DNA of 44,367 bases, from the NCBI RefSeq assembly GCF_002113885.1, contig NW_018407210.1, positions 160,926 to 205,292 of the forward strand, given 5' to 3'. The position numbers and the translations under genes are program-made. This DNA is from Mizuhopecten yessoensis (lineage: Eukaryota). The notes beneath the pieces were generated by a model. That model made no database searches. It was not told the DNA's origin and saw nothing but the letters and a program-made list of their open reading frames with translations. This document shows positions 9,107 through 30,109 of the stretch, in pieces (position 1 is the stretch's first letter; each line of letters starts with the position of its first letter).

Positions 9107-9716
9107 AGCTATAAGCTAAAACAAAGAACTGCTATAATTAGCTAAAACAAAGAACTGCTATAAGCTAGAACAAAGAACTGCTATAAGCTAAAACAAAGAA
9201 CTGCTATAAGCTAAAACAAAGAACTGCTATAAGCTAAAACAAGGAACTGCTATTAGCTAAAACAAAGAACTACTATAAGCTAAAACAGAGAACTGCTATA
9301 AGCTAAAACAGAGAACTACTTTAAGCTAAAACAAAGACCTGCTATAAGCTAAAACAAGGAACTGCTATAAGCTAAAACAAAGAACTGTTATATAAGCTAA
9401 AACAGAGAACTGCTTTAAGCTAAAACAAAGAACTGCTAGAAGCTAAAACAAAGAACTGCTAGAAGCTAAAACAGAGAACTACTTTAAGCTAAAACAAAGA
9501 ACTGCTATAAGCTAAAACAAATAACTGCTATAATTAGCTAAAACAAAGAACTGCTAAATTAGCTAAAACAAAGAACTGCTATAAGCTAAAATAAAGAACT
9601 GCTATAAGCTAAAACAAAGAACTGCTATAATTAGCTAAAACAAAGAACTGCTATAATTAGCTTAAACAAAGAACTGCTATAAGCTAAAACAAGGAACTGC
9701 TATAAGCTAAAAACAC
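9107..9716. repeat. 23-bp microsatellite-like array (gctaaaacaaagaactgctataa), ~26 copies, with occasional 26-bp variants
   Basis: Regular period. Confidence 0.95.
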
Positions 9717-9769
9717 TGAAGCCTGTCTGTTTCCACATCAAGTACATTAGAACAGAACACGGTACATAC

Positions 9770-9930
9770 CCATCCAGAGACTTGTTGACCAGTGCCTTGA
9801 CTGTCTTGTACACATGGTGATCAGGGGCCCTGTGTTCTATCTGACACCTAAGGGCACGGTATTTGGACTCTGTCGACCCTCGGAGTGACCAGCCAGTGGA
9901 CTCACTGACCGTCAGCATGTCTTTCATCAC
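9770..9930 (-). CDS. PARP4: PARP4-like exon 8: VMKDMLTVSESTGWSLRGSTESKYRALRCQIEHRAPDHHVYKTVKALVNKSLDG
   Basis: ttggtag acceptor and GG|GTATGT donor. Matches human LIRDMVNVCETNLSKPNPPSLAKYRALRCKIEH. Confidence 0.8.
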
Positions 9931-10246
9931 CTACCAACCATTGAAGTAGAACCTGTTAAACTTGACCTCAAAGGATTTTATGTTTTCCCAAACTGAACCC
10001 AAATATCCAGATAGTTGAAATATTTTGCTTGGACCAAGCATGAAATATTTTTCTTAATCATGATAGTTTACAAATAAAGTTGAGCAGGATTCAGGGTAGC
10101 ATATTTCATTTTTAACCTTTTCCTTGAAAAAACAATAATAAAACTGACATGGTACTATGGACCAGGAGTACCTAATACATGTATCTATTGTTTGATTGAC
10201 AGCCAGCAATAAGTGACACAGATCTCTGTTGTATGAGTACTATGAA

Positions 10247-10690
10247 CTAGTAGAACCTACCTGACAAAGATCCTGTTCCGTAGACAACCAGGCGTTTTTG
10301 ATACAATTGGCTGTTGTGTCTGTAATGTGTACTAGTAGAACCTATCTGACAAAGATCCTGTTCCGTAGACAACCAGGCGTTGTTGATACAGTTGGCTGTT
10401 GTGTCTGTAATGTGTACTAGTAGAACCTATCTGACAAAGATCCTGTTCCGTAGACAACCAGGCGTTGTTGATACAGTTGGCTGTTGTGTCTGTAATGTGT
10501 ACTAGTAGAACCTATCTGACAAAGATCCTGTTCCGTAGACAACCAGGCGTTGTTGATACAGTTGGCTGTTGTGTCTGTAATGTGTACTAGTAGAACCTAT
10601 CTGACAAAGATCCTGTTCCGTAGACAACCAGGCGTTGTTGATACAGTTGGCTGTTGTGTCTGTAATGTGTACTAGTAGAACCTACCTGAC
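10247..10690. repeat. 85-bp tandem repeat, 5+ copies, duplicating the 3' end of PARP4 exon 10686..10844 plus its donor
   Basis: Copies start at 10247, 10331, 10416, 10501, 10586 and 10671. On the minus strand each copy reads ..aacgcctggttgtctacggaacaggatctttgtcag(a/g)taggttctactag. Confidence 0.9.
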
Positions 10691-10844
10691 AAAGATCCTG
10701 TTCTGTAGACAACCAGGCATTGTTGACACTGCTGATGGCCACCTTGTTGTTGTGTGGAAGAGTGGAGTAGAACTCATTGAGGACAGACTGCTTGTCTTCT
10801 GGTTCACCTCTTAGCTTCATTAACAAAGCTTCAGCCTTCTCAAT
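10686..10844 (-). CDS. PARP4: PARP4-like exon 7: IEKAEALLMKLRGEPEDKQSVLNEFYSTLPHNNKVAISSVNNAWLSTEQDLCQ
   Basis: ttttag acceptor and CAG|GTAGGT donor. Matches human SKAEGILLLVKAALKNGE..EFYRLIPHKG..KKADLCQ. Confidence 0.75.
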
Positions 10845-10974
10845 CTAAAACATCCCATAAAAACCTAATTTTCCAGTGGATAAGGTCAAATCACATTCTG
10901 GATCAGTCTCAATTCATAGTGTTCTGGCTTATTACATTAATTTGTTACTAATCCATTTAATTCATCATTTCATT

Positions 10975-11360
10975 GGAGCACATTCATGAAACAGCATAGT
11001 ACTGGAGGTCAAGGTCAAAAGGTCAAATTGAGGTAACAATGACCTCATATTAGGATATTTTTTATTTTAAATAAGGCTTTTCCATGATGTACTTATATAC
11101 AACATTTGATCCCAATTCATGAAACAGTGGCTGAATAATGCTCTTACCACCAATATTTCAGTATTTGAGGTCAAGGTCAGTCAAGGTCCCATGATGTTCA
11201 TATGTACAAAGTTTGATGCCTATTCATGAAACAACATCAAAGATATGCTCTGAAAACCATCATTATAGTACTTGAGGTCAAAGTCAAAGGTCAAATTGAG
11301 GTCACATTGACCTCATGTTAGGATGTGACACACCACTTCCCCATGATGCACTTATGATAC
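10975..11360. repeat. ~125-bp degenerate tandem repeat x3, rich in AGGTCA direct repeats (gaggtcaaggtcaaa..ggtcaaattgaggtcacattgacctcat)
   Basis: Each copy has a catgaaaca..gaggtcaaggtca core. Confidence 0.75.
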
Positions 11361-11472
11361 CTGGACAAATCAAATACTATATGCCCCTTACTTTTGTCAA
11401 AGCAGGAGTATAAGCATGGGGATAAACACATTATTTCACATATCAGTGATGCTGGTACTCCAGTCTTCTGAC

Positions 11473-11607
11473 CTGTTCTAGTTTGACTGAGCTTGGTGAG
11501 GTCAGGATCTCTGATAGGTCTGAGTAGGCCTCCCTCCATATTCCCTCCACTAGTTCACAGACAGGATCAGATAACTCTGCTTTCTCTAATCCAAATGCCA
11601 TCATCAT
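11473..11607 (-). CDS. PARP4: PARP4-like exon 6: MMMAFGLEKAELSDPVCELVEGIWREAYSDLSEILTSPSSVKLEQ
   Basis: tgtcag acceptor and CAG|GTCAGA donor. Matches human SQEVSDLVEMIWAEALGHLEHMLL. Confidence 0.65.
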
Positions 11608-11872
11608 CTGACAAACAGAATAATTCAATTTATCATTGTTCATTAAAGTAATTCTTTTAAATTATTATGCATAATTATGAAAACTGAAAATCAATAAAAA
11701 AAGCTTAACCGAAATCTCTTCTTGTCACAGACTGCACTTTGAGACCTTCAGGCCTCATACTAATTTTTTTTTTTAAATCTAACATATTTTAAATTTCCGT
11801 TTCAAACATAAGAATGACAGAAAACTAAAGACTGCTTGGTTCAAACTTGTTGATTTTCAGAGATTTGCTAAC

Positions 11873-12034
11873 CTTTTGAAAGTTCAATGTGCCTATGCCC
11901 CTGGGAGGTGCATCATGGGATACCTCCATTAGATTTGGGTGTTCCGTCTGCTGTTTGTACAAGAAACTGTACATCTTGGTAGCTTCGTCTGATGTCTCAA
12001 CATAATAACATTCCATTTTCTCAGGTTTTCCTTC
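11873..12034 (-). CDS. PARP4: PARP4-like exon 5: EGKPEKMECYYVETSDEATKMYSFLYKQQTEHPNLMEVSHDAPPRGIGTLNFQK
   Basis: gatag acceptor and AAG|GTTAGC donor; phase 0 to 0. Confidence 0.6.
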
Positions 12035-12534
12035 CTATCAAGTAAGTTAAGAAATGTTATAAACATTTTTTTACATGTATCATACTTAGAGGATCTTAAG
12101 TGAATTTTCATATCATACAGAATTTGAATTTGTGAAATGAGTGTAAGAATTCTTTATTTTATTGAGACTCTAGTGAGTTGAAATGACACATTTGTGATGA
12201 CCTTCATAATATAAACCTCATATGAAATGGAAAGGCACGTAAGATTCTGTTTACCCAACATTCTTGAAAACAACACTATCTTAGGTTGACTTGAATTTAA
12301 AATATCAACATTCTCTATCCAACTTGTTTTCTTTTAACTGTAACATCACAATGGAAATGGAAGTCTGTGACATCAGGAAGTTATGACATCACTATGGAAA
12401 CAATAGGAATATATAGCCAATCACAGCTCATGCACCTAAAGGTGAAATTTAATGTGTATTCGTAACACAATAACGCAGTTAGTGTTATACACTGATACAA
12501 GCAGGGTTTCTGTATCAGAATAACTTTACACCAC

Positions 12535-13345
12535 TAATTATTTACTCATCTGTCTCATTGAAAATGAGCTATTTGTATTTATTTACTCATCTGTCTCATT
12601 GAGAATGTGCTATTTGTATTTATTTACCCATCTGTCTCATTGAGATGAGCTATTTGTATTTATTTACTCATCTGTATCATTGAGAATGAGCTATTTGCAT
12701 TTATTTACTCATCTGTCTCATTGAAAATCAGCTATTTGTATTTATTTACTAATCTGTCTCATTGAAAATGAGCTATTTGTATTAATTTAACCATCCGTCT
12801 CATTGAGCATGAGCTATTTGTATTTATTTACACATCTGTCTCATTGAAAATGATCTATTTGTATTTATTTACTCATCTGTCGCATTGAGAATGAGCTATT
12901 TGTTTTTTTTTCCCCGCCTGTCTCATTGAGAATGAGCTTTTTGTTTTTTTTTCCCCGCCTGTCTCATTGAGAATGAGCTTTTTGTTTTTTTTTCCCCGCC
13001 TGTCTCATTGAGAATGAGCTTTTTGTTTTTTTTTCCCCGCCTGTCTCATTGAGAATGAGCTTTTTGTTTTTTTTTCCCCGCCTGTCTCATTGAGAATGAG
13101 CTATTTGTTTTTTTTTCCCCGCCTGTCTCATTGAGAATGAGCTTTTTGTTTTTTTTTCCCCGCCTGTCTCATTGAGAATGAGCTTTTTGTTTTTTTTTCC
13201 CCGCCTGTCTCATTGAGAATGAGCTATTTGTATTTATTTACTCATCTGTCTCATTGAAAATGAGCTATTTGTATTTATTTACTCATGTCTCATTGAGAAT
13301 GAGCTATTTGTATTTATTTACTCATCTGTCTCATTGAGAATGAGC
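12535..13345. repeat. 41-47 bp tandem repeat (tttactcatctgtctcattgagaatgagctatttgtattta and variant tttttttttccccgcctgtctcattgagaatgagctttttg), ~18 copies
   Basis: Period 41 (12541 to 12582 to 12623); a poly-T/CCCCGCC subvariant block at 12890-13200. Confidence 0.95.
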
Positions 13346-13434
13346 TATTTGTATTTTGAACAGATGTTCATCATTGATATATATACTAAATTTACAAAAA
13401 AACACAATGAAGTATTGGTAATTTGATATTGTAC

Positions 13435-13569
13435 CTGGATGTGTTTGAGGTTGCCATGGTGTTTGGATACCCTGAATCTGTGGATTTGTCCAGGCAGAAA
13501 GTCCCGTTCTTCAGTAACGTGAACCTCCAGCACACAGAAAAAAATCCTCCCTGCACTCTTTACATATTT
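13435..13569 (-). CDS. PARP4: PARP4-like exon 4: KYVKSAGRIFFCVLEVHVTEERDFLPGQIHRFRVSKHHGNLKHIQ
   Basis: tttcag acceptor and CAG|GTACAA donor. Matches human AVVVELQCSRDSRDCPFLISSHF. Confidence 0.6.
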
Positions 13570-13844
13570 CTGAAACAGTAACCAAGCCAGGACATGCAAA
13601 ATAACAAGTACGGTATTTACTTCAGTAAGTGTATATTTATGTTGACTGTCTTTTCATGAGGAACTTGAGTTCTGATCTAATTCATGTGTGTTACATTTGA
13701 GTACCTCTGTATACCCATTTTATATGTTGATAAGGTGTGGATTAAAAAACTATTTACATGGGTGATAATGCAAAATTGTTCCTTAAAGACTTGTAATCAA
13801 ATAAATCATAAGTTACGTTAGGACTGAAGAAGCAACAGTGAATA

Positions 13845-14710
13845 CCCAAGATATAATAAATTACATGTAACCCTGCCCCGATATAATAAATTACGTGTAA
13901 CTCTGCCCACATATAATAAATTACGTGTAACCCTGCCCAGATATAATAAATTACGTGTATCCCTGCCCAGATATAATAAATTACGTGTAACTCTGCCCAG
14001 ATATAATAAATTACGTGTAACCCTGCCCAGATATTATAAATTACATGTAACCCTGCCCAGATATAATAAATTACGTGTACCCCTGCCCAGATATAATAAA
14101 TTACGTGTAACCCGGCCCAGATATAATAAATTACGTGTAACCCTGCCCAGATATAATAAATTACCTGTAACCCTGCCCAGATATAATAAATTACATGTAA
14201 CTCTGCACGGATACAATAAATTACCTGTAACCCTGCCCGGATACAATAAATTACCTGTAACCCTGCCAAGATATAATAAATTACGTGTAACCCTGCCAAG
14301 ATCTAATAAATTACGTGTAACCCTGCCCAGATATAATAAATTACCTGTAACCCTGCCCAGATATAATAAATTACGTGTAACTCTGCCCGGATACAATAAA
14401 TTACCTGTACCCCTGCCCAGATATAATAAATTACATGTAACTCTGCACGGATACAATAAATTACCTGTAACCCTGCCCAGATATAATAAATTACATGTAA
14501 CTCTGCCCGGATACAATAAATTACCTGTAACCCTGCCCGGATACAATAAATTACCTGTAACCCTGCCCAGATATAATAAATTACATGTACCCCTGCCAAG
14601 ATATAATAAATTATGTGTAACCCTGCCCAGATATAATAAATTGTGTGTAACCCTGCCCAGATATAATAAAGTACATGTAACCCTGCCCAGATATAATAAA
14701 TTACATGTTA
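13845..14710. repeat. 30-bp satellite (ataataaattacgtgtaaccctgcccagat), ~29 copies
   Basis: Period 30; this produces the long minus-strand ORFs at 13754..14599. Confidence 0.95.
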
Positions 14711-14773
14711 CCCTGTTTCAAAGCAGATTCTGCAATGCTGGATGTAAACAAGTGATCTTTCTAGCGTTCTCAC

Positions 14774-14913
14774 CTGTAACACAGCATATTTTGCCACCTG
14801 GTATTTGGCGCTGTTGAAAATGGGAGTGTGTTTTTCCTGTAGTGGCCATGCCTTCACTCCCGCTGGATAGAAGGACGACTTCTTCCTCTTACCAAGAATC
14901 TGGTACTTTGTAG
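14774..14913 (-). CDS. PARP4: PARP4-like exon 3: (A)TKYQILGKRKKSSFYPAGVKAWPLQEKHTPIFNSAKYQVAKYAVLQ
   Basis: Phase-compatible with exon 2 (G|CT). CAG|GTGAGA donor. Weak match to the human ..DFEVAKYNTLEK region. Confidence 0.55.
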
Positions 14914-15691
14914 CTATCACAAAAGTAAACACAAAAACCCTTATATCCTTCATCAGCACATTTCAACTTCAAGAACTATTCATAAACTGTTCCATAATGT
15001 TGATAAAAAAATATGTCTGCTTGTTTGTTTCTTCAGGCAGAATAAAAATCAGATATTTGCTTTTAAATGAAGCAATACTTTTCCTTTGGAGAAATCAAAA
15101 TGATTGAAAATTTGTTTCAAGAAGCCAAATGCAGTAACATAAAGGTAAGATATAGCAACATATCTTTGCATAGACAATGAGTACTATTTTCTATGAGTTC
15201 AAATCCAAAACTCACAACCATCTAAATGGTGTGCCCTTGTTTTAAACATTTAACCATCATATGTACGAATAAAACATTAGTTATGAAAGTAAACTAAATA
15301 CTACTACTTAAAATTTGTCTGTAAGGATGCCCTGCTCCTACACTTAAGAAGTAAAGCAAGGTCATAAAAGTCAAGGTCAAAGGTCAAAGCTACAAAAAGT
15401 AATACAGTATCCTGTACTCACAGAGGAGCATTAGCATGTGAAGTGGCATGACCCTAGCTGCAGTAGTTACCACTAAGGCCAAAGAGGTGAAGCTCAAAGT
15501 TGGAAGGTCACAAAATTGCTGTAAAATGTGCTGTACTCACATAGACACATAGTCATGTAAAGTTACATAGCTGAGTTGCAGTGCTTGTAGTCCATAACTG
15601 ATCTAAACACAAAAGCTGAATCAGCTGGAAATATGTAAGTTTGTTTCGCTTATTTGAGGTACATTATGAAACATTTTATATAAATCTTTAC

Positions 15692-15890
15692 CTGCAATTT
15701 TACCAGAGCCAAGTTTCTGAGACCTTGTTTTGCCAATAACCAGGTAATCATCTGAACAAAGTAGTCTCCCTTCCTCCACACAGTCATACAGGAAGGCAAC
15801 GGACACAACGGGGATGCCATACTTCTGGGCCATCTTACGCTTGTAGCTGGTGTCCGCTTTGGCAGGGTCGTTACATACCACATGAGTACT
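15692..15890 (-). CDS. PARP4: PARP4-like exon 2 (BRCT C-terminal half): STHVVCNDPAKADTSYKRKMAQKYGIPVVSVAFLYDCVEEGRLLCSDDYLVIGKTRSQKLGSGKIA
   Basis: cctag acceptor and CAG|GTAAAG donor. Matches human QCTHIILDNADVLSQYQLNSIQKNHVHIANPDFIWKSIREKRLL. Confidence 0.7.
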
Positions 15891-16260
15891 CTAGGAAAAA
15901 TAAGCAGATTTTGTATTTTACAAATGATGTATATTTCTATTTGAATGAAGTTATATGATCGATTTAAGTGTGAACATGAATTTTCTCATAAAAGTACAAT
16001 ATACATTTGTACATGTACATTTCAAACTACTTATCTAAAAGTGTATGCCTAGTTATGAATGAAATTTGGCAAAGGTTTAAAGAAGATTTTATTAAACATT
16101 CTTATTTTTGAAGACCAACCATGACTAAAGAATATTGGCACATGCAATCTGTTTTAGTATAAGGATTTAATTTAGTAAATCAGCACTTTCTAGAGTTGAC
16201 CTTATTTGTAGTACTTTGACTTCTGGGTGCAAACTTGTTACCTGCTTAAAAGCTTCTTAC

Positions 16261-16392
16261 CTTCTTTGTAACAATGTAGGAGACAATCCCGTCATTATCT
16301 GTGATTTTCTTACGGATTTCTTGTTTCTTTTTGAAGCTGACACTTGTTGTTAGGTCAAGGACAACATGGCAACCACCGAATATTGTTGCCAT
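16261..16392 (-). CDS. PARP4: PARP4-like exon 1 (start codon; BRCT N-terminal half): MATIFGGCHVVLDLTTSVSFKKKQEIRKKITDNDGIVSYIVTKK
   Basis: ACCATGG Kozak context. Similar to human PARP4 MVMGIFANCIFCLKVKYL...GGKFSFSL. GTAAG donor after AAG. Confidence 0.7.
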
Positions 16393-17428
16393 GGTGATGT
16401 CTACAACTGTTGATCCCTATGTAGCCTGCTGTCAGTATTTAGGACTCTTTAGTTTGAAGTTGCACACACCAACTAATAATAGTCAAAGGTTTTTAATCTT
16501 AAATGAAGCTCAGCAATTCATCTGTTTATTGAAAAAATGATGAATCTGAAAAATAACAATACCTTTATTGATTACAAATTCAGCATTCTGAACTTTTAGA
16601 GTGTGAAATTGATAGAAAGCACTATAACGTTGGCCTAAAACAAATGCATTGTACATGTATAACTAAAATTCAAAGCTTAAAAACACAAGTGATTCAAAGT
16701 TACATGTGTATCAGCAAAAGAACAGTGTGGGGAAATACTGCCTTACTGCTATAGCTTTAGTTAAGCATGCAACAACAAGCATGGCTATGCAGTGCCTATA
16801 TATTGTAGATGTTATAGGTGGCAATGCTGTGACCCTTGCCGTATCCTGTAAGGCCAGTTCTAGGCGGCTCAGGGAAGGTGCATTAATTGGTACACATGCT
16901 GGGAGGACCCTCAAGATACCTGTACATGTACTTACTTTACAACAATTATGAAACATGTTATTTCCACTTTTATGATGATTACTCACTCTTGTTGGCCTGA
17001 ATGTTAGTGTGCGCGGAGTCTTAATGTGGGAGGAAACCAGAGTACCTGGAGAAAATCCATGTAGTTGGGCAGGTGACCCCATACTTTACAATATAAGGGC
17101 GAAAAACTGCCTCACTCATGCAGGCAAGCTAACTTTTCCAGCTACACAGTATATATATAACTCTGTCCTGTCCGCCATTCACATCTGGTAGCAGTGTAGT
17201 TACCTTGTGGTACATATCATGTAATTTTATAGTAACTCTGGCCAACTCTCAGTGCATGGTTAGGGAACAGCATTGGTACACATGGAATACATAACCTACA
17301 GGATTCCCCAGGTCAAGTCTCCGGATGATAATACTCCGAGGGGAATAGTGCAATAGCCAAAGAATATGTGGGGGAAATACTGCCTTCCTGGTAATTAAGC
17401 TAGCTTCTCCAGTGATGTGGTTTAACCA

Positions 17429-18377: not shown

Positions 18378-18381
18378 ATAG
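18378..18381. other. Target-site duplication ATAG (left copy; the right copy is at 25978-25981)
   Basis: The same 4-mer immediately abuts both LTR outer ends. Confidence 0.7.
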
Positions 18382-18562
18382 TGTGGTGTTTGTTGACGTT
18401 CTGTAAGCGTGCGAATGACTGTGAGTGAAGCATGTGAGTGACCTCGAATTGTTCATGCATGTGTTTTGTTCCAAGATAAAAAGTACCCAAGCTGAGATAG
18501 CTGTCCAGTGTTCTATATTTGTGAAGCGTATGTGTGCCGACTGTACTGGTACGAATACAACA
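18382..18562 (+). repeat. 5' LTR (181 bp, tgtggtg...tacaaca)
   Basis: Identical to 25797..25977. The upstream and downstream flanks differ between the two copies. Confidence 0.9.
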
Positions 18563-18563: not shown

Positions 18564-18581
18564 TGGCGTCACGAGCATTCC
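18564..18581 (+). promoter_or_regulatory. Primer-binding site TGGCGTCACGAGCATTCC, 1 nt after the 5' LTR
   Basis: TGG.. complementary to a tRNA 3' end ..GGAAUGCUCGUGACGCCA. Which tRNA is not determined; it is possibly Arg-like. Confidence 0.6.
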
Positions 18582-19319
18582 CGAGTCTGTTCGCGGAGGT
18601 CATGGATACGCTAGAATCCGAGGAGAATTTCTAGTGGGATTAATACAAGAGACGTAGAATCCCGGGTAGAGGGTGCGCGCCATCTTTGATTGTCTTTTGT
18701 GTGATACACGTGTTTTGTGTTTCACGTTGTCCCAATGTTTATGTTTTGTGTTTAGAGTTGTATCCTGGGTAGAGGGAGCAATTTATTCACAAATTCATTC
18801 GATAGTTGACCCGTGTAGAAGGCCAACTACTGTCTGATACCCTTGCGTGTTTTTAAATAATAAAACAAAAACCAAAAACGAAACAAACGGAAACGGAACG
18901 GTTATCTTAGGACAATAAAAAAATAAAATATTTAGACAACATTTTATTCGTGGTCACGTTGGTTAGGTGCTCTGGTGGCGCTGTACCAATGGTAACTGAT
19001 GTTTGATTAATTTAGTTTCAAGTGTATTCAGTGAGGTAGGTGTTCTGTTGACGCCAGGCTGCTCTGAATATCTATATATATATTTATTAATTTTTTTTTG
19101 CTCGCTGTGGTAGGTGTTCTGTTTGACGCTAACCCTCGAGTATTATTTATATTAAAACCACAGCTAGGGTGTCGGTTGTTTTTCTCTTACTGTTCTAATA
19201 TGCAGTGTGGTGGGTGGTAATTACCGCTACCCCTGTTTAATAGAAATAAATTTTGTAAAAGGATTTGGGTATATTTTTTTTTTTTTTTTCTCTTGTTGTT
19301 TCTGTGTTAACAGATCTAG

Positions 19320-20114
19320 ATGAACAAGCGGTATGCAGGGGTACTGATCGCAGATTCAAGAGCAAATAATTTTCAAAGATTTGGTCATCCAGAGGATTTC
19401 AACATCAAATTTATAATTCAGAGAGGCGCACAAATTCAGGACCTGGTGGCATTATCAATTCCAATCGTTCGGACATTTGAACCATCAAAAACTTTAATAA
19501 TAAAAGTTGCTGCTGGCATTAATGATTTGTTAAAATTGGAACGGGAGCCAGATGGGAAAATTCTAGTACCGTCAGACAGGTCACCGGACAATATTATTGA
19601 AGAACTTTCAGAATTTAGAACACGTGTACAGGTAGTTAGACCATCAAGCCGAGTTAGTTTCATCACCATCCCTCCTGCTTCGTTAAAAGACTTTCAACTT
19701 AATAAATCCTCCAAACCAATTAACCAAAATCTGGTAACAAAATTACAAGAACAACACAATAAAACTGTGTTGGAGGTAAATTCTAGAATTCACCATTTAA
19801 ATAACCAGACAGTGCCAACGGGTTGGACAGTTAAGTGGGCAGATACCATTGTTCACAAACACAAGAAAAGGAGAGGCCGTGCACGGAAAGTGATTACCGC
19901 TTACCGGTATTCCTTTGAACAGTATTACGATGGCTTACATGCCAAATCTGATGTAAAGAAAGAGTGGTACAAACAGGTGGTTTCTGGAATTCGAGGGGAT
20001 ATTACCAAATTGGAAAAACCAGGAAGTGAGATTCGAATTGTCACCACAGAATCTTCAGAAGAGGACACTCCGGTAGACACTGACGATAAAAGTTGGAAGA
20101 GACTTAAACGGTAA
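19320..20114 (+). CDS. ORF0 (264 aa) in the retrotransposon leader: SGNH/GDSL-hydrolase-like (esterase) protein
   Basis: Block I VLIADSRAN (Ser13), block II RGAQ (Gly), block III AAGINDL (GxND), block V YDGLHAKSD (DGxH). Basic KHKKRRGRARK stretch. Confidence 0.7.
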   Translation: MNKRYAGVLIADSRANNFQRFGHPEDFNIKFIIQRGAQIQDLVALSIPIVRTFEPSKTLIIKVAAGINDLLKLEREPDGKILVPSDRSPDNIIEELSEFRTRVQVVRPSSRVSFITIPPASLKDFQLNKSSKPINQNLVTKLQEQHNKTVLEVNSRIHHLNNQTVPTGWTVKWADTIVHKHKKRRGRARKVITAYRYSFEQYYDGLHAKSDVKKEWYKQVVSGIRGDITKLEKPGSEIRIVTTESSEEDTPVDTDDKSWKRLKR

Positions 20115-20129
20115 TTGTAATACGGCAGC

Positions 20130-20230
20130 GGGTTGGTGATCTGTTGTCGCCTTATCCCCTGCACCGTAGAACTCTTAAACGATAAGTTGAGGTTGTGGGT
20201 TGGTGATCTGTTGTCGCCTTATCCCCTGCC
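20130..20230 (+). repeat. Two copies of a 33-bp direct repeat (gggttggtgatctgttgtcgccttatcccctgc) at 20130-20162 and 20198-20230, immediately upstream of the gag ATG
   Basis: Exact duplication separated by 35 bp. Confidence 0.9.
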
Positions 20231-20233
20231 ACA

Positions 20234-21637
20234 ATGACTCGTATAAATTACTGTGAGAGACAAGACCTACTACTATTGCCGGGTATTGGAGAGCGTCTGG
20301 CGGACAAAATTCTACAAGTCCGTGAAGTAATGGGGGACATTACTAAAGAGGTTCTGTTGGCCATTCCATACCTGAGGCCCACAGAGACCATGTTAAACCA
20401 AATAGACTTTACACCGCGATATGAACGGTTTACTGACATGGGTGAGAACTTGACGGGTGAGCATCACACCTACAAAATGGACCCACCACCAAAGGTTCAA
20501 CATCCTTCACCACCACGACTACAAGTTCAAAATCCAGGACCGTATTTTGACAATTATGGGTATCCTGGCAGCCGCCAGAGAGAACATCGACAGCAGTACC
20601 AGTACACTAATTACCGAGACCCATACGAACAGGAATACCACGGTCAGCCCCGTCAACCACAGTTCAACTTTCCACCTCCAAGGTACAATCCGGGGAATCC
20701 GCCGCCAAGACGTGGACGGGTGGTAGCTCCCAAGACGTTACGCTATGATGGAAACTCCGATTGGAAAGCTTTTTGCACAAAGTTTACTAGATTCACTGAG
20801 GCGGAGAATCTTACTGCTCGTGAATGTCGGGATAACCTTTGCTGGATACTGGAGGGCAAAGCTAGTGAGTTTTTCACTATGCTCTTGGATCGTGATTCAA
20901 CGATGGAATTTTTCGATATCATGTCAAAAATGGAACGCCGTTTTGGATTCAAGGAGCTGGCCGAGACTACCCAAGCACGCCTTCGTAACGCCCGACAGTA
21001 CCCTGACGAGAAGCTAGCAGATTGGGCTGATCGGGTGTTATCTTTAGCTACCAGAGCCTATCAGGATCTGCCCGATGAGTTTATGTATAAACAAGCGATC
21101 TCCACAATTTGCCAGGGAGCAGCAGATAAAGAAGCAGGCCAATATGTTTCTAACCTAAGATTGGGATCTATTGAGGAAGTGGTGGACAAGATGAGACTTT
21201 TTCAACATACAAGAAAGTCTATCTATGGTCGCGACCGTCCTAGACCTTCGCCTGTCGAAGAACTAATCATACAAGAGGAAGAAGGTACTAGTGTCAGCAG
21301 GACATTCCAGCGTAGAGTCCCAAATTCTCAGTCCTCATTCCAGCCATCTTCAGCAACAAACCAAAGGCTGTCAGCCCTAGAAGACAAGGTATCGGACATG
21401 CAAAAATCCCTTAAACAAATTTTGGAGGCTGTTCGTGTCCCAGAGGAAAGGATCAAAAGGAATGTGGTTTGTTATGGTTGTGGCCAGACAGGCCATTTTA
21501 AGTCGAACTGTCCTAATGCTGAAGATAATAAATCTGTGAAACTCCTGGATGCGGCTGAAAAGACTGAAGGTGAAGAAGTAGTCCCTGGATCTGAAGAAGT
21601 TGAGGACTCGTTAAACACCGACAGGTCGGCCAACTAG
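20234..21637 (+). CDS. gag: gag (467 aa): N-terminal HhH motif (LLLPGIGERLADKIL), Gln/Pro/Tyr-rich linker, capsid-like region, CCHC zinc knuckle (CYGCGQTGHFKSNC)
   Basis: CX2CX4HX4C motif at 21469..21510. Sits upstream of pol within the LTR element. Confidence 0.85.
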   Translation: MTRINYCERQDLLLLPGIGERLADKILQVREVMGDITKEVLLAIPYLRPTETMLNQIDFTPRYERFTDMGENLTGEHHTYKMDPPPKVQHPSPPRLQVQNPGPYFDNYGYPGSRQREHRQQYQYTNYRDPYEQEYHGQPRQPQFNFPPPRYNPGNPPPRRGRVVAPKTLRYDGNSDWKAFCTKFTRFTEAENLTARECRDNLCWILEGKASEFFTMLLDRDSTMEFFDIMSKMERRFGFKELAETTQARLRNARQYPDEKLADWADRVLSLATRAYQDLPDEFMYKQAISTICQGAADKEAGQYVSNLRLGSIEEVVDKMRLFQHTRKSIYGRDRPRPSPVEELIIQEEEGTSVSRTFQRRVPNSQSSFQPSSATNQRLSALEDKVSDMQKSLKQILEAVRVPEERIKRNVVCYGCGQTGHFKSNCPNAEDNKSVKLLDAAEKTEGEEVVPGSEEVEDSLNTDRSAN

Positions 21638-24600
21638 ACCTAAGCCCGACCTTAGATGTTAAAAATGGTCTTCATCCTACACGGTCAACAATTACACCAG
21701 ATGACCTTATCAGTGAGGTAATGACTGATAACACCACCGAATCAACCCGTGTTGAACTTGATAATATTACCCGATTACGGTCAACATCCATGTTTCAAGT
21801 GCCTGTTATCGTGGGAGGTTTTCATACAAGAGCAGTGGTGGATACCGGTGCTGAAGTATCAATCATATCGGATGAGGTATACAAAAACCTTGTTGAGCCA
21901 CCCTCGATATTGAAACATGTGACACTTAATGCAGCAGGCAGAGATCAACCAATTGAGAGCTATATTGTTGGACCCATCGAACTAGATATAGGATCTAAGA
22001 GTTACAAGGTTAGCATTTATGTTGGACCAATTGAAGATGATATCTTGCTGGGTCTGGACTTTCTGAAGCCCAATAATGCTCAACTTGACATTTCAGGGGA
22101 TACTCTTACCCTGGGTATTGGTGGAGAGAAAATTTCAGTGAACACAGGAAAAGAATTTTTACCTGCTTCCGAAGGCAAGGTATATGTACAGAAACGGACT
22201 GTAGTACCACCGAACAGTGTAGCAAGAGTGTGTTGTCGAATTTCCGGAAAGGTAGGCAGTTCTAGTCTAATTGTGGAGCCTACAGTAGAAAATGGACTAC
22301 TAATTCCGAGATCATTGTATGACACAGCCTCGCAGATCAGGTTGTACTGTGTGAATGTCACGGACAGAAATATAATTCTGAAAAGGAAAACGGAAATTGC
22401 GATAGTCAATGAGGCAAGAGAAATTATTGCGAATGTTGAAAGTCATGCGGATCCCATATTTGTGGAGACATTACGCTGTGGCGAGGAAACACCGGACATT
22501 GCGCCTTCGCATGTACAGAGTCTCATTGATGGCGCGAAAGAACAGTTGTCGGTTGAGGAGTTAAGTCAATTTGCTCAACTTATTAAGGATAATTCCGATG
22601 TTTTTGCGAAAAATGACTTTGACCTGGGACATTTTAGTGCTATCAAACACAATATTGATACAGGTACGGCACGGCCGATAAAGCAACGTTTTCGCAGAAC
22701 GCCAGCATGTTTTGCCAACGAAGAGGATTTGCATCTAAAGAAGATGCTAGATTCTGGAGTTATCGAATCCTCTACATCCGAGTGGGCGTCAGCACCAGTG
22801 CTGATCCGTAAACGTGACGGCGGAGTGCGCTGGTGCATAGATTATCGGGGACTGAACTCGGTAACTACTAAAGACGTGTTTCCATTACCGTTAATAGAAG
22901 AATGCCTCGACGCATTGACCGATAACGTGTGGTTTTCGAAACTAGATGCCAACTCGGCTTATTGGCAAGTCCTTGTCAATGAATCGGACAGACATAAGAC
23001 TGCCTTCAGTACAAAACACGGATTGTTTCAGTTTGTCAAAATGGGATTCGGACTTTGTAACGCCCCAGCAACTTATGCCAGAGTAATGAACCTGGTTCTT
23101 CGTGGATTAACATGGAACATTGTTCTTGCCTTCCTGGACGATGTGTTGGTTCTTGGGAAGACCTTCGATGAGCATCTCCAAAATCTAGCAGAAGTCTTTG
23201 AGCGCATCAGGGCGTATCAACTGAAACTCAAACCCGCTAAGTGCGAATTCTTTAAAAAGAAGGTTGACTTCTTAGGGCGAACAGTTAGTGAAAGTGGCAT
23301 TGAAACCAGTGGCAAACACATCGAAAAGATGAAGGAGTGGCCAACACCAACATCATCTAAGGATGTTGAGCAATTCTTGGGGTTTGCCAACTACCATCGC
23401 TCATTTATTCCCGAATATGCCAAAATTGCAGCTCCTCTGTACCAATTGACAGGAAAGAATGACTTTCGGTGGGATGAGGAACAGGAAAAAGCATTTTCCA
23501 GCTTAAAATCTTCCCTGAGTTCTCCACCTGTTTTGGGAATACCGAATAACAGCGATATGTTTGTGCTCGACACAGACGCATCTGACTTTGCTATTGGTGG
23601 TGAGTTGTGCCAAATTCAAGAAGGCAAGGAAAGAACAATAGCTTATGCTAGTTATTCCCTGACATCAGAACAGCGTCGCTATTGTACAACAAGAAAAGAA
23701 CTTTTGGCAGTAGTTCGCTTTACCAGACAGTTTCGCCATTATCTGCTTGGTCGCAAGTTTGTGGTGAGAACTGATCACAACAGTTTGGTTTGGTTGCTCA
23801 ACTTCAAAAATCCCCAAGGACAACTGGCGAGATGGCTTGAAGAGTTAAGCCAGTATGATCTAACTATTGTACACCGAAAAGGAAAAGACCATCAAAATGC
23901 TGACAGTCTCTCCCGGAGTCTACCAAAAGACCAGTGCGGAAACTTGAAACATGGGCAAGATCCTACCACGTTACCATGCGGAGGATGTGCCTATTGTACT
24001 CGGGCTCATGAACATTGGCATCAGTTTATCTCTGATGTGGACGAGGCGGTCTCTCTAAGTAACATACCCTGCGTACAAAAAGTAACCCAGTCTGACAATA
24101 CTTTCGCCGTGGAAGGAAGTCTATATAGCGAGAATTTGACCATAGAAGTGTCTGCTTTTGGAATAAATATCCTCACTAGATCTGAAAGGAGTGATATTGA
24201 AGACATGAACGTCAACGCCTTGGATATTCAATTCTCGGGTTACTCGGCAAAGGAAATCCGGACTGCTCAGGAGCAAGATCCAGAGTTATCTATACTGCTA
24301 GAGTGGGTAAAGAATAAGAAAGAGGTGGACGAAGGAGAACTGTTTGGATCCAGTAGAGCCATAAAGTATTACTGGATTAACCGTGAGTTATACTTCCTGG
24401 ATGAGTCTGGTATATTGTGGAGGAAGGATCTAGAAGACACTAGCAAAACTCAATCCTTGGTTATACCTCCCAGTATGAGAGAAGACGCTATTTCTTTGTG
24501 CCATGACATCCCGGCTAGCGCTCATCAGGGAATCAACCGAACAGAATCCATGGTTCGCCAGAGGTTCCATTGGTATGGCTTGCCTCGCGACGTTCAAAAG

Positions 24601-25746
24601 TTCGTGAAATCCTGTGTCATCTGCAACACCAAGAAAAAAGCCAGTCGAAAGGCTCGATGCCCGTTGACTCTTTTCCAATCAGGGGAACCCATGGAAAGAG
24701 TTCATCTTGACTTCTTGGGCCCACTACCCATAACAGCAACAGGAAATGAACACATATTAGTTATGGTAGACCAGTTTACCAAATGGGTTGAATGTGTTCC
24801 CTTACCTTCGCAGACCGCCGCGACAACCGCAAAAGCAGCTGTAAACGAATTCTTCGCGAGATTTGGATATCCGTTCCAAATTCATACAGACCAAGGTAGA
24901 AACTTTGAAAGTCGTCTGTTTAAAGCTTTGTGTGAAGTTACGCAAATTCATAAAACTCGTACAACGGCTTATAGACCTTCTGCCAATGGACAAGTGGAGA
25001 GGTATAATCGCACCATCATGAACGCAGTTCGATGCTTCATAAACTCTCAAAGTGAATGGGACATCTATTTACCACAGCTAGCTGGCGCGCTAAGGTGTTC
25101 CGTAAACCGCCAAACTGGACATACCGCCAACAAGTTAATGCTGGGCCGGGAGACCAATCAGCCTGCAGATCTCTTGTATGCCGCTCCATCGAACAAGAAG
25201 GCGAAGGACTCTCGCGACTCTGAAAGTTATGTGGACAATTTGGTAGATGCAATTCAGCGTGCCCATGAAACCGCCAGAAAAACCCTTGCCACAACGCAGA
25301 GGAGAATGAAACGTGATTACGATGTTCGCGTTTACACTACCGAGTTCATTGAAGGGGATGTGGTCTACGTCTTCGACAATGCAACGCCTAAGGGACAAAA
25401 TCCCAAGTTAAAGGCCGTTTGGAAAGGTCCTGGACTCATAGTCAAAAAGTACACGCCGTACGTCTATGGAGTACAGATGGGGAAGACGCGACAAGTCATT
25501 AATCACGATCGATTAAAAATGTGTAATGACCGTAAGCGACCCCAATGGATAATCGATCTCCAGGAGCACCGAGCGGAACCGGTAGAGGAAACCCACTGTG
25601 TCTGCCATCAAACGGATGATGGGACCATCATGATCCAGTGTGACTTTTGTTTTGTGTGGTTCCATGGACGTTGTGTGGGCTTAAATGTAGAGGAAGCCGA
25701 ACAGCTGGAACTTTATTGCTGTACTACGTGTGAACAATCTGTATAA
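21604..25746 (+). CDS. pol: pol (frame open from 21604; first ATG at 21721): protease (VDTGAEVS), RT (FSKLDANSAYWQV; FLDD), RNase H (VLDTDASDFAIGG), integrase (HHCC + DDE + GPY/F), C-terminal PHD-type zinc finger
   Basis: Domain order PR-RT-RH-IN means Ty3/gypsy. It is in the -1 frame relative to gag with a 34-nt overlap. Confidence 0.9.
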   Translation, partial: GLVKHRQVGQLDLSPTLDVKNGLHPTRSTITPDDLISEVMTDNTTESTRVELDNITRLRSTSMFQVPVIVGGFHTRAVVDTGAEVSIISDEVYKNLVEPPSILKHVTLNAAGRDQPIESYIVGPIELDIGSKSYKVSIYVGPIEDDILLGLDFLKPNNAQLDISGDTLTLGIGGEKISVNTGKEFLPASEGKVYVQKRTVVPPNSVARVCCRISGKVGSSSLIVEPTVENGLLIPRSLYDTASQIRLYCVNVTDRNIILKRKTEIAIVNEAREIIANVESHADPIFVETLRCGEETPDIAPSHVQSLIDGAKEQLSVEELSQFAQLIKDNSDVFAKNDFDLGHFSAIKHNIDTGTARPIKQRFRRTPACFANEEDLHLKKMLDSGVIESSTSEWASAPVLIRKRDGGVRWCIDYRGLNSVTTKDVFPLPLIEECLDALTDNVWFSKLDANSAYWQVLVNESDRHKTAFSTKHGLFQFVKMGFGLCNAPATYARVMNLVLRGLTWNIVLAFLDDVLVLGKTFDEHLQNLAEVFERIRAYQLKLKPAKCEFFKKKVDFLGRTVSESGIETSGKHIEKMKEWPTPTSSKDVEQFLGFANYHRSFIPEYAKIAAPLYQLTGKNDFRWDEEQEKAFSSLKSSLSSPPVLGIPNNSDMFVLDTDASDFAIGGELCQIQEGKERTIAYASYSLTSEQRRYCTTRKELLAVVRFTRQFRHYLLGRKFVVRTDHNSLVWLLNFKNPQGQLARWLEELSQYDLTIVHRKGKDHQNADSLSRSLPKDQCGNLKHGQDPTTLPCGGCAYCTRAHEHWHQFISDVDEAVSLSNIPCVQKVTQSDNTFAVEGSLYSENLTIEVSAFGINILTRSERSDIEDMNVNALDIQFSGYSAKEIRTAQEQDPELSILLEWVKNKKEVDEGELFGSSRAIKYYWINRELYFLDESGILWRKDLEDTSKTQSLVIPPSMREDAISLCHDIPASAHQGINRTESMVRQRFHWYGLPRDVQKFVKSCVICNTKKKASRKARCPLTLFQSGEPMERVHLDFLGPLPITATGNEHILVMVDQFTKWVECVPLPSQTAATTAKAAVNEFFARFGYPFQIHTDQGRNFESRLFKALCEVTQIHKTRTTAYRPSANGQVERYNRTIMNAVRCFINSQSEWDIYLPQLAGALRCSVNRQTGHTANKLMLGRETNQPADLLYAAPSNKKAKDSRDSESYVDNLVDAIQRAHETARKTLATTQRRMKRDYDVRVYTTEFIEGDVVYVFDNATPKGQNPKLKAVWKGPGLIVKKYTPYVYGVQMGKTRQVINHDRLKMCNDRKRPQWIIDLQEHRAEPVEETHCVCHQTDDGTIMIQCDFCFVWFHGRCVGLNVEEAEQLELYCCTTCEQSV

Positions 25747-25796: not shown

Positions 25797-25977
25797 TGTG
25801 GTGTTTGTTGACGTTCTGTAAGCGTGCGAATGACTGTGAGTGAAGCATGTGAGTGACCTCGAATTGTTCATGCATGTGTTTTGTTCCAAGATAAAAAGTA
25901 CCCAAGCTGAGATAGCTGTCCAGTGTTCTATATTTGTGAAGCGTATGTGTGCCGACTGTACTGGTACGAATACAACA
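25797..25977 (+). repeat. 3' LTR (181 bp)
   Basis: Identical to the 5' LTR. Confidence 0.9.
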
Positions 25978-26799
25978 ATAGGTAGCTCGCCGGAGGTAGC
26001 ACAGGAGTTTGACAGTATATCAATATAATAGTCTAGATGAATGGGGTATTTTTTCATCTGGACTTTTGTATTATATTGATATAATTTCGAACATAACAGA
26101 AAAGAATTACTCACAATTGCTGCAATGCCCTTCAAAGTCAATATATATTATACTTAATCATCAGTATTGATCGATGAAAAGCTGATGAAGATGAAGTCAG
26201 TCATTTCAGACCAGCTGTTATAATCACTGAAATCAGTCATGTAGTTTTTGAGGAATTTTGTTTCAGTCCTCGTTAATTTTAATTTGGTACTTTTATACCA
26301 TTGGACCCCTGTCCCACAGCTGTCTGTGTTGTTCCCTATATATATACCTATACTATACAATTGCCTTGCTAGCTCCACTTAATTTCGGCTTGGGTTGTTT
26401 TGCCAGGACACTTCCGCTGACCAGGTATAATAGCTCATTCGGTCAGAATGAAAGTATACGATGTAAGTCCATGGTTTAAATCCAAGTTTAGCCTGAATGT
26501 TTAAATGTACTCGGTCAGAACACTCCTGTTGATTACAAGTAAATTTTGTTTGTTTCATCATGATTATTTCTCAAAAAAGTCCTGCAAGATAGGATTTTCT
26601 TTTCAGAAATGATATATCAAAGCTTCACATGATGCCTGAAAAGACAGTTTTTTTAAGTACTTAAGTACAGTTTTGGCAGAGAACTCTTTGGAAGTACCAA
26701 AACATACCGTGTCCTGTGTAATAACCAACAAACCAAGCCAGCAAGCTAAGCTGACCCAAATCAATTAACCTTGAATAACTACAAATTCATTCCTGTTTG

Positions 26800-27794: not shown

Positions 27795-28705
27795 CTTTGG
27801 AGCAGTATACCAGTAACTAGTTACCACTAGGACAGATTGTGTCTCCCTCTGTCACCCTTCACACACATCCATGGAGCAGTATACCAGTAACTAATTACCA
27901 CTAGGACAGATTGTGTCACACTCTGTCACACTTCACACACATCCATAGAGCAGTATACCAGTAACTAATTACCACTAGGACAGATTGTGTCACACTCTGT
28001 CACACTTCACACACATCCATGGTGCAGTATACCAGTAACTAGTTACCACTAGGACAGAGTGTTTTACACTCTGTCACACTTCACACACATCCATGGAGCA
28101 GTATGCCAGTAACTAGTTACCACTAGGACAGATTGTGTCACCCTCTGTCACACTTCACACACATCCATGGATCAGTATACAAGTAACTAGTTACCACTAG
28201 GACAGATTGTGTCACCCTCTGTCACACTTCACACACATCCATGGATCAGTATACCAGTAACTAGTTACCACTAGGACAGATCGTGTCACACTCTGCCACA
28301 CGTCACACACATCCATGGAGCAGTATACCAGTAACTAATTACCACTAGGACAGATTGTGTCACACTCTGTCACACTTCACACACATCCATGGTGCAGTAT
28401 ACCAGTAACTAGTTACCACTAGGACAGAGTGAGTCACACTCTGTCACACTTCACACACATCCATGGTGCAGTATACCAGTAACTAGTTACCACTAGGACA
28501 GATCGTGTCACACTCTGCCACACGTCACACACATCCATGGAGCAGTATACCAGTAACTAATTACCACTAGGACAGATTGTGTCACACTCTGTCACACTTC
28601 ACACACATCCATGGTGCAGTATACCAGTAACTAGTTACCACTAGGACAGATTGTGTCACACTCTGTCACACTTCACACACATCCGTGGAGCAGTTTACAA
28701 ACACA
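27795..28705. repeat. 74-bp satellite (ccatggagcagtataccagtaactagttaccactaggacagattgtgtcacactctgtcacacttcacacacat), ~12 copies
   Basis: Period 74 (27871 to 27945 to 28019). Confidence 0.95.
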
Positions 28706-29712
28706 CATCACCCTAACAAATTGAATCACATTTTCTATCAGACTTTACCAGTATCATATACATAGGAAACTCATATGACTATTTTTATATTAAGGAAAGT
28801 GGAAAATTTCAACTATGATTTCCCCTTCAGGTATATATACTGTACATGAACATACAATATTTTTAAGGTTTCACAATTATATCAATAATATTATTGTCTC
28901 TAAAACATCAATTTCCAATTTGTTCTTTGTATGTTGCACATGAATCTATAAACATATTTCTGTATCAATGTACAAAGAAGCAAAAGTATTGTAATCTTTC
29001 TTTACTACATCATTCTATTGTCTCCCTTTGACCACTGCTCATTGGTGGGTTGTTAAAAACACCCTGCTCAGATCACAAAACTTAACAGAGCACTATTAGT
29101 GCTATTTTGCAGTTTCTCATATAAATCAAGGGTTTGAAATGAATGAAAATGATAAAGGAAATGGTTTTCTCCTTTCACATATGTGTTACATCTTTCTGAA
29201 AGCACTAACAATGACTCAAACTAACGGGCGCAAAAGAGTTCCTGTATGGCATATGCATTGATAGGCCAGGAAAATACCAATGTTAGCATATTTGTAACAA
29301 TTAATATACAGCTCCCTGGTTTTCCAAAATGTTTTCACATTTTACAAGGAAAACACTTTTAAAACTAAATTGTAACAGAAAATACAATTGAAAGTTGCAT
29401 GTCACAGGTTTTCTCAACTACTTCTACTCAACATTGACAACCACAATCCTCTCCATCCAGAACAATGTTACAAAGCACCGTCTGAGCCAGTGGATTGCCG
29501 GAGCTTACTTATGTTAAGCCTCATCTCTTACTAGGTTAACCTTGGTCAGCAATCTTCATGTTTAATGGCATCAGGAGGGCAGCCATCCTTTTGAGCTCTG
29601 ACTAAGGGCGGGTAATTCTTTTACAGTTAAAACTCTTTATATTCAAAGGCGTCCATTAAAATGTCAAGTCTATAGTTGCTTGTATCACAATGAAGTTGAT
29701 GACTTATGGTGA

Positions 29713-29751
29713 TCAATTCCGTAACTTTGCAAGTCGCTGCGTAAGCTCGTC
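29713..29751 (-). CDS. CHMP1: CHMP1-like last coding exon: DELTQRLAKLRN*
   Basis: ttttcag acceptor and TGA stop. Matches human CHMP1B DELSQRLARLRDQV*. Confidence 0.7.
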   Translation of the reverse strand, partial: DELTQRLAKLRN

Positions 29752-30027: not shown

Positions 30028-30109
30028 CTGTTCATTACTAGCATTTGATGAGGCTACTCCAGAAGGTAAGGAGGACTGCGCTGATGGAAGGTCCATGTTT
30101 AATTCCAAA
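30028..30109 (-). CDS. CHMP1: CHMP1-like exon: (G)LELNMDLPSAQSSLPSGVASSNASNEQ
   Basis: tgttacag acceptor and CAG|GTAGGT donor. Matches CHMP1B LDLNMELPQGQTGSVGTSVASAEQ. Confidence 0.75.

Follow-up and report, generated by a model that had tools for sequence, protein, structure and literature searches.

We describe a predicted esterase gene 5' of gag in a transposable element, found in a 44,367-nucleotide stretch of the Mizuhopecten yessoensis genome (contig NW_018407210.1, positions 160,926 to 205,292; hereafter the window, whose own numbering we use). The stretch carries a complete and structurally intact Ty3/gypsy long terminal repeat (LTR) retrotransposon of 7.6 kb, and the gene, which we call ORF0, is an open reading frame (ORF) located between the primer-binding site (PBS) and gag. 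Our essential contention, which we consider probable on balance, is that ORF0 encodes an element-borne, stand-alone and strongly basic SGNH serine hydrolase of the cytosol or nucleus, that it is the first cistron 5' of gag in a lineage of marine-invertebrate Ty3/gypsy elements, and that, by analogy, its role is directed at membranes. The components of this proposal differ in strength. There is very little room for doubt about the SGNH fold and homology of ORF0, and we are confident that it is a selected and integral gene of its element; that the protein is catalytically active is likely, given the conservation of its predicted active site.

A preliminary description of this DNA had reported a 264-aa ORF between the PBS and gag that displayed the signature blocks of SGNH/GDSL esterases, and both points hold when the sequence is re-read: the frame runs from ATG to TAA within a complete element, and all of blocks I, II, III and V are present as quoted, namely VLIADSRAN (Ser13, 19356-19358), RGAQ (Gly36), AAGINDL (Asn68) and YDGLHAKSD (Asp204, 19929-19931; His207, 19938-19940). 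Ser13, Asp204 and His207 form the predicted catalytic triad, while Gly36 and Asn68 are the predicted oxyanion-hole residues. Conservation was assessed in an alignment of 119 homologues that are 17-47% identical to ORF0. The columns conserved in at least 90% of these sequences (D12, S13, R14, G36, G66, I67, D204, G205 and H207) are the SGNH residues and a few others specific to the family, and no fewer than 92% of the sequences retain each of Ser13, Gly36, Asp204 and His207. In block I, D12 occurs in 109 of the 119 and S13 in 110, the remainder being nearly all gaps, and where GDS has its glycine the family members have A, T, G or S; G36, G66 and H207 are each present in 117 sequences and D204 in 113. 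Position 68 is Asn in 82 homologues, including all gypsy-linked relatives, and Cys in the other 37, a sister subgroup in which block III reads G-I-C-N. Because such conservation persists across 119 homologues at only 17-47% identity, the motifs of ORF0 are not a chance pattern.

The fold itself is shown by structure, since the direct hidden Markov model (HMM) test on ORF0 was negative. An AlphaFold model built from 12 sequences had a mean predicted local distance difference test score (pLDDT) of 75, and a model from all 119 reached a pLDDT of 92.7 and a predicted template modelling score (pTM) of 0.85 with unchanged topology. Fold-library searches were made with the 12-sequence model. Against the PDB, the best Foldseek match was PAF-AH Ib alpha (3dt8, E 4.6e-6, probability 1.00), the very protein that the preliminary description had nominated for comparison, with isoamyl-acetate esterase and sialate O-acetylesterase among the other top matches (probability 1.00 each), and in BFVD the named matches were all SGNH hydrolases. 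As the SGNH fold demands, the predicted structure is a flavodoxin-like alpha/beta/alpha sandwich around a five-stranded parallel sheet, in which the Ser follows beta1 (residues 5-11), the Gly follows beta2, GxND follows beta3 and DxxH precedes the C-terminal helix. ORF0 is tied to the Pfam GDSL models only transitively, through P0165, a protein that belongs to the family (E 9e-39 to the family profile) and passes Lipase_GDSL at 30.7 bits against a gathering cut-off of 23.6; weak GDSL matches occur in nine of the 119 members. The earlier reading of ORF0, as an additional 5' ORF for an SGNH-fold hydrolase with a full catalytic set, is thus upheld by residue conservation, predicted structure, the Pfam link through P0165 and, as described below, a constant position 5' of gag in 14 other loci.

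Beyond its catalytic blocks the protein has several physical features of its own. It is strongly basic (pI 9.85; core pI 10.05) and begins its first strand at residue 5, with no N-terminal domain. Two beta-hairpins are inserted, at residues 71-84 and 178-197, the second bearing the basic stretch HKHKKRRGRARK, and a long helix (residues 136-162) carries conserved Q143, N154 and N161. In the disordered tail, W-KR-x-KR comes after an acidic stretch of Ser/Glu/Asp, with KSWKRLKR at the very end, and this combination recurs in distant family members. ORF0 has no signal peptide or transmembrane (TM) segment (maximum Kyte-Doolittle 19-residue mean 1.09), and its predicted location is consequently the cytosol or nucleus; secretion is not expected.

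ORF0 belongs to a large family. A search of 5.8 billion proteins returned 11 relatives at 31-47% identity, and when 1.84 billion cluster representatives were searched with a profile, 797 clusters matched at E <= 1e-3, of which 318 reached E <= 1e-10, giving a family of about 800 clusters at 50% identity whose members are nearly all stand-alone proteins of 220-300 aa. No relatives were found among IMG/VR viral contigs; exact look-up of the window ORF0 gave no record, a near-identical copy of the element was absent from the collections searched, and there is no second copy within the window. Fourteen other loci with enough readable flank have an SGNH ORF directly 5' of a gypsy gag, and the order SGNH ORF-gag-pol is found in every readable-flank relative that is at least ~28% identical to the window ORF0. 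The gag is of the DUF7041 type in three of these loci (L001, L009 and L015), while L002 comes from the sea cucumber Holothuria leucospilota. In L008 and L011 ORF0 comes after an integrase and an LTR, which is what copies assembled in tandem or as circles would show; L017/L018 have an architecture identical to that in the window, including a plant homeodomain (PHD) finger, and the L017 gag is likewise alike. Five contigs binned in Sedimenticola metagenome-assembled genomes (MAGs; L023-L026 and L028) display the same SGNH ORF-gag order. With regard to provenance, the GTDB 'Sedimenticola sp.' contigs (L023-L028), together with P0181 and P0283, are labelled bacterial and carry whole gypsy elements of eukaryotic type, esterase ORF included; the labels involved, Sedimenticola and Candidatus Thiodiazotropha, are those of bivalve symbionts, and the contigs are almost certainly mis-binned host DNA.

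Comparison between these elements indicates how ORF0 has been maintained. Identities are 30-35% for ORF0, ~36% for the reverse transcriptase (RT)-RNase H portion of pol and 29-35% for integrase (IN), while gag similarity was undetectable in the main between-element comparison; weak gag matches to the window were seen in three of the five MAG contigs (24-25% identity, and one short zinc-knuckle match). Judged by these identities, ORF0 diverges about as slowly as pol, and gag is mostly unrecognisable. Neither of the signs that the preliminary description would have taken against its reading, want of any significant HMM or structural match and routine disruption of ORF0, was observed: the structural match is significant, and in 12 additional loci ORF0 is intact with all motifs in seven and split or truncated in the others, a mixture that is expected of live and dead copies. 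Nested insertion of ORF0 was considered and rejected, as no repeats or target-site duplication (TSD) bound it and the gene order recurs in relatives. Copies encoding the same protein in different samples differ by 0-1 nt. An apparent ratio of nonsynonymous to synonymous substitution (dN/dS) of 1.1 between L008 and L014 (82% amino acid identity) was dismissed as an artefact, the DNAs being 98.5% identical and L014 carrying compensated frameshifts.

The family extends beyond gypsy elements. Members elsewhere are 22-32% identical and have a block III of G-I-C-N/S. All four Helitron-linked loci examined (L005, L006, L010 and L022) place the gene 0.5-2 kb downstream of Rep/PIF1 helicase genes on the same strand, with one of the helicase genes bearing an OTU domain, and these Helitron-linked proteins are not recognised by the Pfam GDSL models. 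In a non-LTR retrotransposon the family member P0166 is the first ORF, followed by an ORF1 with a PHD finger and an ORF2 of the APE-RT (endonuclease-RT) type, and this arrangement occurs in two independent contigs, L020 (355-5902) and L021. BLASTP relates the window ORF0 directly to the Helitron-linked proteins (E 1e-10 to 1e-15) and to P0166 (E 3e-8), and identities within one transposon context are higher, at 30-56%. By these similarities the family is common to three transposon classes, with subgroups that are coherent by context; very different mobile elements appear to reuse one accessory enzyme. No cellular, non-transposon context was found among approximately 20 examined loci with readable flanks.

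SGNH/GDSL esterases are themselves established components of retroelements, being present in the ORF1 proteins (ORF1p) of CR1, L2 and RTEX and in some Penelope-like elements (PMC3905857). The only transposon esterase to be studied biochemically is that of ZfL2-1 ORF1p (4c1b; Schneider et al. 2013), which has a pI of 10.8, cleaves p-nitrophenyl acetate with low turnover and binds anionic phospholipids and liposomes, not oligo-A RNA; it has been proposed that it targets ribonucleoproteins (RNPs) to membranes and releases them by limited phospholipid hydrolysis (PMC3905857). ORF0 resembles these proteins in being a transposon-encoded SGNH protein with an intact S-G-N-D-H set, in its location upstream of the RT gene and in being very basic (pI ~10-11), and differs in that their esterase is fused within ORF1p behind a coiled coil and an arginine-rich motif, whereas ORF0 stands as a cistron of its own. 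Of the buried H191-S228 pair specific to transposon esterases (ZfL2-1 numbering), S228 could, on spacing alone, have its counterpart in Thr116 (T or S in 96 of the 119 homologues). Esterase and PHD finger, a combination known from CR1-like ORF1 proteins (Kapitonov & Jurka 2003, as cited in PMC5408684 and PMC3905857), occur together again in the gypsy element, where the esterase is ORF0 and the PHD finger lies at the end of pol. A link to non-LTR elements, raised in the preliminary description, is partly supported: a homologue, P0166, does reside in such an element, but no similarity to the ZfL2-1 esterase is detectable, the family profiles giving no match to its sequence in the PDB at E <= 10.

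Other precedents are found among LTR elements and Helitrons. The Vesta LTR retrotransposons of bdelloid rotifers have a GDSL ORF3 downstream of pol, and Athena/Terminon elements also have GDSL ORFs (Rodriguez, Kenefick & Arkhipova 2017, PMC5408684; PMC6431247). Compared by description, Vesta and the window element have in common a stand-alone GDSL/SGNH ORF with intact catalytic residues and without TM or coiled-coil domain, a gypsy-like LTR carrier, and an ORF type that is shared between transposon classes; however, the Vesta gene occupies the env position 3' of pol, whereas ORF0 lies between the PBS and gag and so not in the ORF3 position, and the hosts are rotifers in one case and marine invertebrates (bivalve-like, with holothurian relatives) in the other. 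In fish, the texim SGNH genes are associated with Helitrons (Tomaszkiewicz et al. 2014, PMC4021074). Texim likewise travels with Helitrons, is patchily distributed in deuterostomes and has been given a proposed role in transposition or the germline (PMC4021074); again comparing by description, Texim is recognised as Lipase_GDSL_2 while the Helitron-linked members here are not, and ORF0 is carried by a gypsy element. The closest solved structures, PAF-AH Ib alpha and bacterial sialate O-acetylesterases, are only 13-17% identical to ORF0, which differs from them in its two beta-hairpin inserts, the long helix between blocks III and V, the tail with its acidic and basic parts, and a DSR motif where they have GDS(L). 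Finally, accessory cistrons between the 5' LTR and gag have a precedent in Ty3/gypsy elements without env, the MDG1 group of Drosophila, in which the short ORFs sORF1 and sORF2 upstream of gag are tied to membrane events and cell-to-cell transmission (bioRxiv 10.1101/2025.03.14.642691). These sORFs are, by contrast, ~70-110 aa long, encode small or FAST-like (fusion-associated small transmembrane) membrane proteins and not enzymes, and are not homologous to ORF0.

Given these precedents, the novelty claimed in the preliminary description was overstated, as GDSL ORFs have been published in the LTR element Vesta (PMC5408684) and with Helitrons (PMC4021074). Our full-text literature searches found no SGNH gene described as a leader cistron of a Ty3/gypsy element, nor any description of the ORF0 family. 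What is new here is the position as a leader cistron, the host range, a family invisible to domain databases, and homology across transposon classes; that retroelements carry esterases was already known.

In proposing how ORF0 might serve the element, we suggest that the enzyme would cleave a small acyl or acetyl ester, that, to argue by analogy from the ZfL2-1 esterase, its positively charged surface would direct it towards anionic membranes or lipids, and that limited ester hydrolysis there could aid particle assembly, trafficking, or passage through membranes or into the nucleus in germline cells. We take this to be the most likely mechanism because ORF0 shares both its charge and an intact active site with the ZfL2-1 esterase; nonetheless, that the substrate is a lipid or membrane component and the accessory role directed at it is an argument by analogy, and we advance it tentatively, as something that may well prove otherwise. 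Helitrons make neither RNPs nor capsids, and the presence of the family with them argues for a generic function and not one specific to particle assembly. An env-like or receptor-destroying role was considered and rejected as unlikely, ORF0 having no signal peptide or TM segment. It is also conceivable, although we regard it as rather unlikely, that a single mobile esterase module has been exchanged among Ty3/gypsy elements, Helitrons and PHD-bearing non-LTR elements in marine animals and kept because it solves a shared problem. If this were true, the shared problem could be access to or passage between germline cells, the crossing of membranes or the nuclear envelope, or the disarming of a lipid- or acetyl-based host defence, and the module would be a functional counterpart of env or of FAST-type infectivity factors.

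A number of observations weigh against our proposal and need to be set beside it. Block I of ORF0 reads A-D-S-R and not G-D-S-L. Pfam gives no GDSL/SGNH match to ORF0 even at E <= 10, still less one at the gathering threshold, so the HMM comparison advocated in the preliminary description came out negative, and the family profiles and single members likewise found no SGNH protein among PDB sequences. (The sole Pfam match of ORF0, Filo_VP24 at E 0.014, was rejected as spurious; an hhalign comparison of the family profile with an approximate human PAFAH1B3 sequence aligned block V at a probability of 0.2, which is not significant, and we do not use it as evidence.) The transposon-specific H191 of ZfL2-1 maps, by spacing alone, to Ala64 of ORF0, four residues ahead of the Asn of block III (Ala in 84 of the 119 homologues), so that the half-domain mechanism proposed for ZfL2-1 may not apply. 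There is no meaningful dN/dS, the more distant pairs being saturated at synonymous sites. Lastly, the related PHD-gypsy element L019 (2961-12838), with a pol 52% identical, is without ORF0, so that the lineage, taken as a whole, can do without the gene. In its stead L019 has further ORFs on the 3' side of pol, one of them for a TatD-type DNase (Pfam E 3.9e-34), and accessory genes appear to be swapped within the PHD-gypsy lineage.

The absence of ORF0 from sister elements such as L019, and the existence of broken copies (L013, L015 and L028), would suit a passenger, that is, a captured host or foreign gene of no benefit to the element, or even a chance ORF with fortuitous motifs. We nevertheless think this very improbable: the position of the gene is constant in 14 divergent gypsy loci, its conservation matches that of pol in elements whose gag genes are for the most part no longer recognisable, its family numbers ~800 clusters (318 at E <= 1e-10) with a strong structural match, and none of the ~20 loci with readable flanks places it in a cellular, non-transposon context. 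Nor does the SGNH fold in itself guarantee catalysis, since it might serve as a non-catalytic module that binds RNA, lipid or protein, like the OSK domain of Oskar or the insect PAF-AH homologues, and act as a gag-like or chaperone cofactor. This we judge improbable, as dead SGNH domains such as OSK typically lose their active-site residues (PMC3905857), whereas the Ser, Asp, His and oxyanion Gly are retained throughout relatives at 17-47% identity in the proportions given above. Closer to our own proposal is an active SGNH enzyme with a target other than lipid, whether a glycan (for example O-acetyl sialic acid), a protein, or a small signal such as platelet-activating factor (PAF), that would alter host defence or signalling and not trafficking. 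Its appeal lies in the enzymes nearest to ORF0 in fold, but neighbours at 10-17% identity tell little about substrate, and glycans outside the cell or in a lumen are unlikely to be accessible to a protein without signal peptide or TM segment; we consider such a target unlikely, if a good deal less so than a passenger.

The element that carries ORF0 has every feature by which a Ty3/gypsy element is defined, that is, TG..CA LTRs, TSD, PBS, polypurine tract (PPT), gag, and pol in the order protease (PR)-RT-RNase H (RH)-IN; its components are given in Table 1. As the preliminary description had stated, ORF0 is intact between identical LTRs (181 bp, 100% identical), and because both LTRs are identical the insertion is very young. 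The pol frame opens at 21604, in the -1 frame relative to gag, and its 34-nt overlap with gag (21604-21637) contains GTTAAAC (21610-21616), which we take to resemble known -1 frameshift heptamers, and we infer that pol would be made by -1 frameshifting. The PHD finger at the integrase C-terminus (25591-25746, pol residues ~1291-1341) belongs to an integrase-PHD fusion common to hundreds of related pol proteins, and when the two sequences alone were compared it showed weak similarity (E 6e-6) to the PHD-finger ORF1 of L020, the non-LTR element. Residues 4-38 of gag (20234-20350) form a helix-hairpin-helix (HHH_3-like) that is unusual in a capsid protein and is kept in related elements (L017 gag, L019). 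The closest named homologues of pol, at ~50% identity, occur in two bivalves (Ostrea edulis and Pinctada imbricata), a brachiopod (Lingula) and a sea slug (Elysia); contigs mis-binned with bivalve symbionts match as well, and these matches together suggest a marine invertebrate host, probably a mollusc.

Table 1. Components of the ORF0-bearing Ty3/gypsy element and stem-loop copies within it (window coordinates).
Feature	Position	Strand	Remarks
TSD ATAG, 5' copy	18378-18381	.	Direct reading; repeated after 3' LTR
5' LTR, 181 bp, TG...CA	18382-18562	+	100% identical to 25797-25977
PBS-like TGGCGTCACGAGC	18564-18576	+	TGG start, one base past 5' LTR
Long leader	18577-19319	+	Between PBS and ORF0
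Stem-loop copies in leader	19035-19055, 19109-19130, 19209-19228; degenerate near 18964	+	
ORF0, 264 aa, SGNH/GDSL-fold hydrolase (predicted)	19320-20114	+	ATG to TAA
ORF0-gag spacer, 119 nt	20115-20233	+	Without ATG
Stem-loop copies in spacer, two identical 33-nt	20130-20162, 20197-20229	+	Second ends 4 nt before gag ATG
gag, 467 aa: N-terminal helix-hairpin-helix, Retrotrans_gag/PNMA-like capsid, zf-CCHC	20234-21637	+	Pfam
pol: PR-RT-RNaseH-IN with C-terminal PHD finger	21604-25746	+	Pfam; first ATG 21721
PPT AAAAGAGGGAGGAA	25783-25796	+	Adjoining 3' LTR
3' LTR	25797-25977	+	Identical to 5' LTR
TSD ATAG, 3' copy	25978-25981	.	

We also need to consider how ORF0 and gag are both expressed. 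On the genomic RNA no long ORF comes before ORF0, and the 757-nt leader that precedes it has seven upstream ATGs, each opening only 3-23 codons. Its own ATG is in a weak context (T at -3) and that of gag in a strong one (A at -3), and the ORF0-gag spacers of relatives are short (6, 11, 22 and 52 nt). Because the leader ATGs open such short frames, the ORF0 start is weak against a strong gag start, the spacer has no ATG and relatives have spacers of 6-52 nt, the arrangement suggests that the two genes are coupled by translation reinitiation. Splice-like signals are present too: AG|GTAGGT inside two leader copies of the stem-loop motif described below (19036-19043 and 19110-19117), a 35-nt pyrimidine tract and AACAG| directly 5' of the ORF0 ATG (19274-19313), and a pyrimidine-rich stretch and TAG| in the spacer (20140-20168); these could permit alternative splicing of a retroviral kind. 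ORF0 and gag might accordingly be translated from one genomic RNA, through reinitiation or the structured spacer, or from alternatively spliced RNAs.

The leader and spacer are linked by a stem-loop motif, GGTNGGTGN-(5-8 nt loop)-N'CGCY, of which there are five copies and one degenerate copy, all on the + strand and confined to the interval from PBS to gag; nowhere else in the 44-kb window does it occur, and Rfam gave no match for the whole window, this motif included. It can form a hairpin of 5-6 bp whose closing pair covaries (A-U, U-A, G-C, C-G) among eight copies, and the spacer RNA is predicted to fold into two hairpins (z = -2.56). The ORF0 of L017, with a protein only 41% identical, is flanked by the same motif (L017 89-109 and 993-1013). 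The motif may be a packaging or dimerisation signal or an element of translation control. Its occurrence on both sides of ORF0 is compatible with insertion of the esterase into a pre-existing array of leader hairpins, which we offer as a lead and not as a result.

The surroundings of the element (1-17000 and 27798-44364) are full of minisatellite arrays (29 Tandem Repeats Finder (TRF) rows, periods of 23-156 bp, arrays up to 1.3 kb). The remaining ORFs of more than 150 aa in the window (8023-8901 and 13754-14546) are read-throughs of these arrays and not genes, and the window has no tRNA genes.

The role of esterases in transposition is a long-standing question, posed by CR1/L2/RTEX and Penelope-like elements, the LTR elements of rotifers and the Helitrons of fish. 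The ORF0 system makes the function of transposon esterases more testable, in that an apparently active element encodes its esterase as a separate first cistron, which could be mutated or deleted without touching gag or pol. A family of ~800 clusters has been missed by domain databases, and many accessory genes of this kind probably stand in annotations as hypothetical proteins. Direct homology also links the esterase ORFs of LTR, rolling-circle and non-LTR elements, and this speaks for a function independent of the mechanism of transposition.

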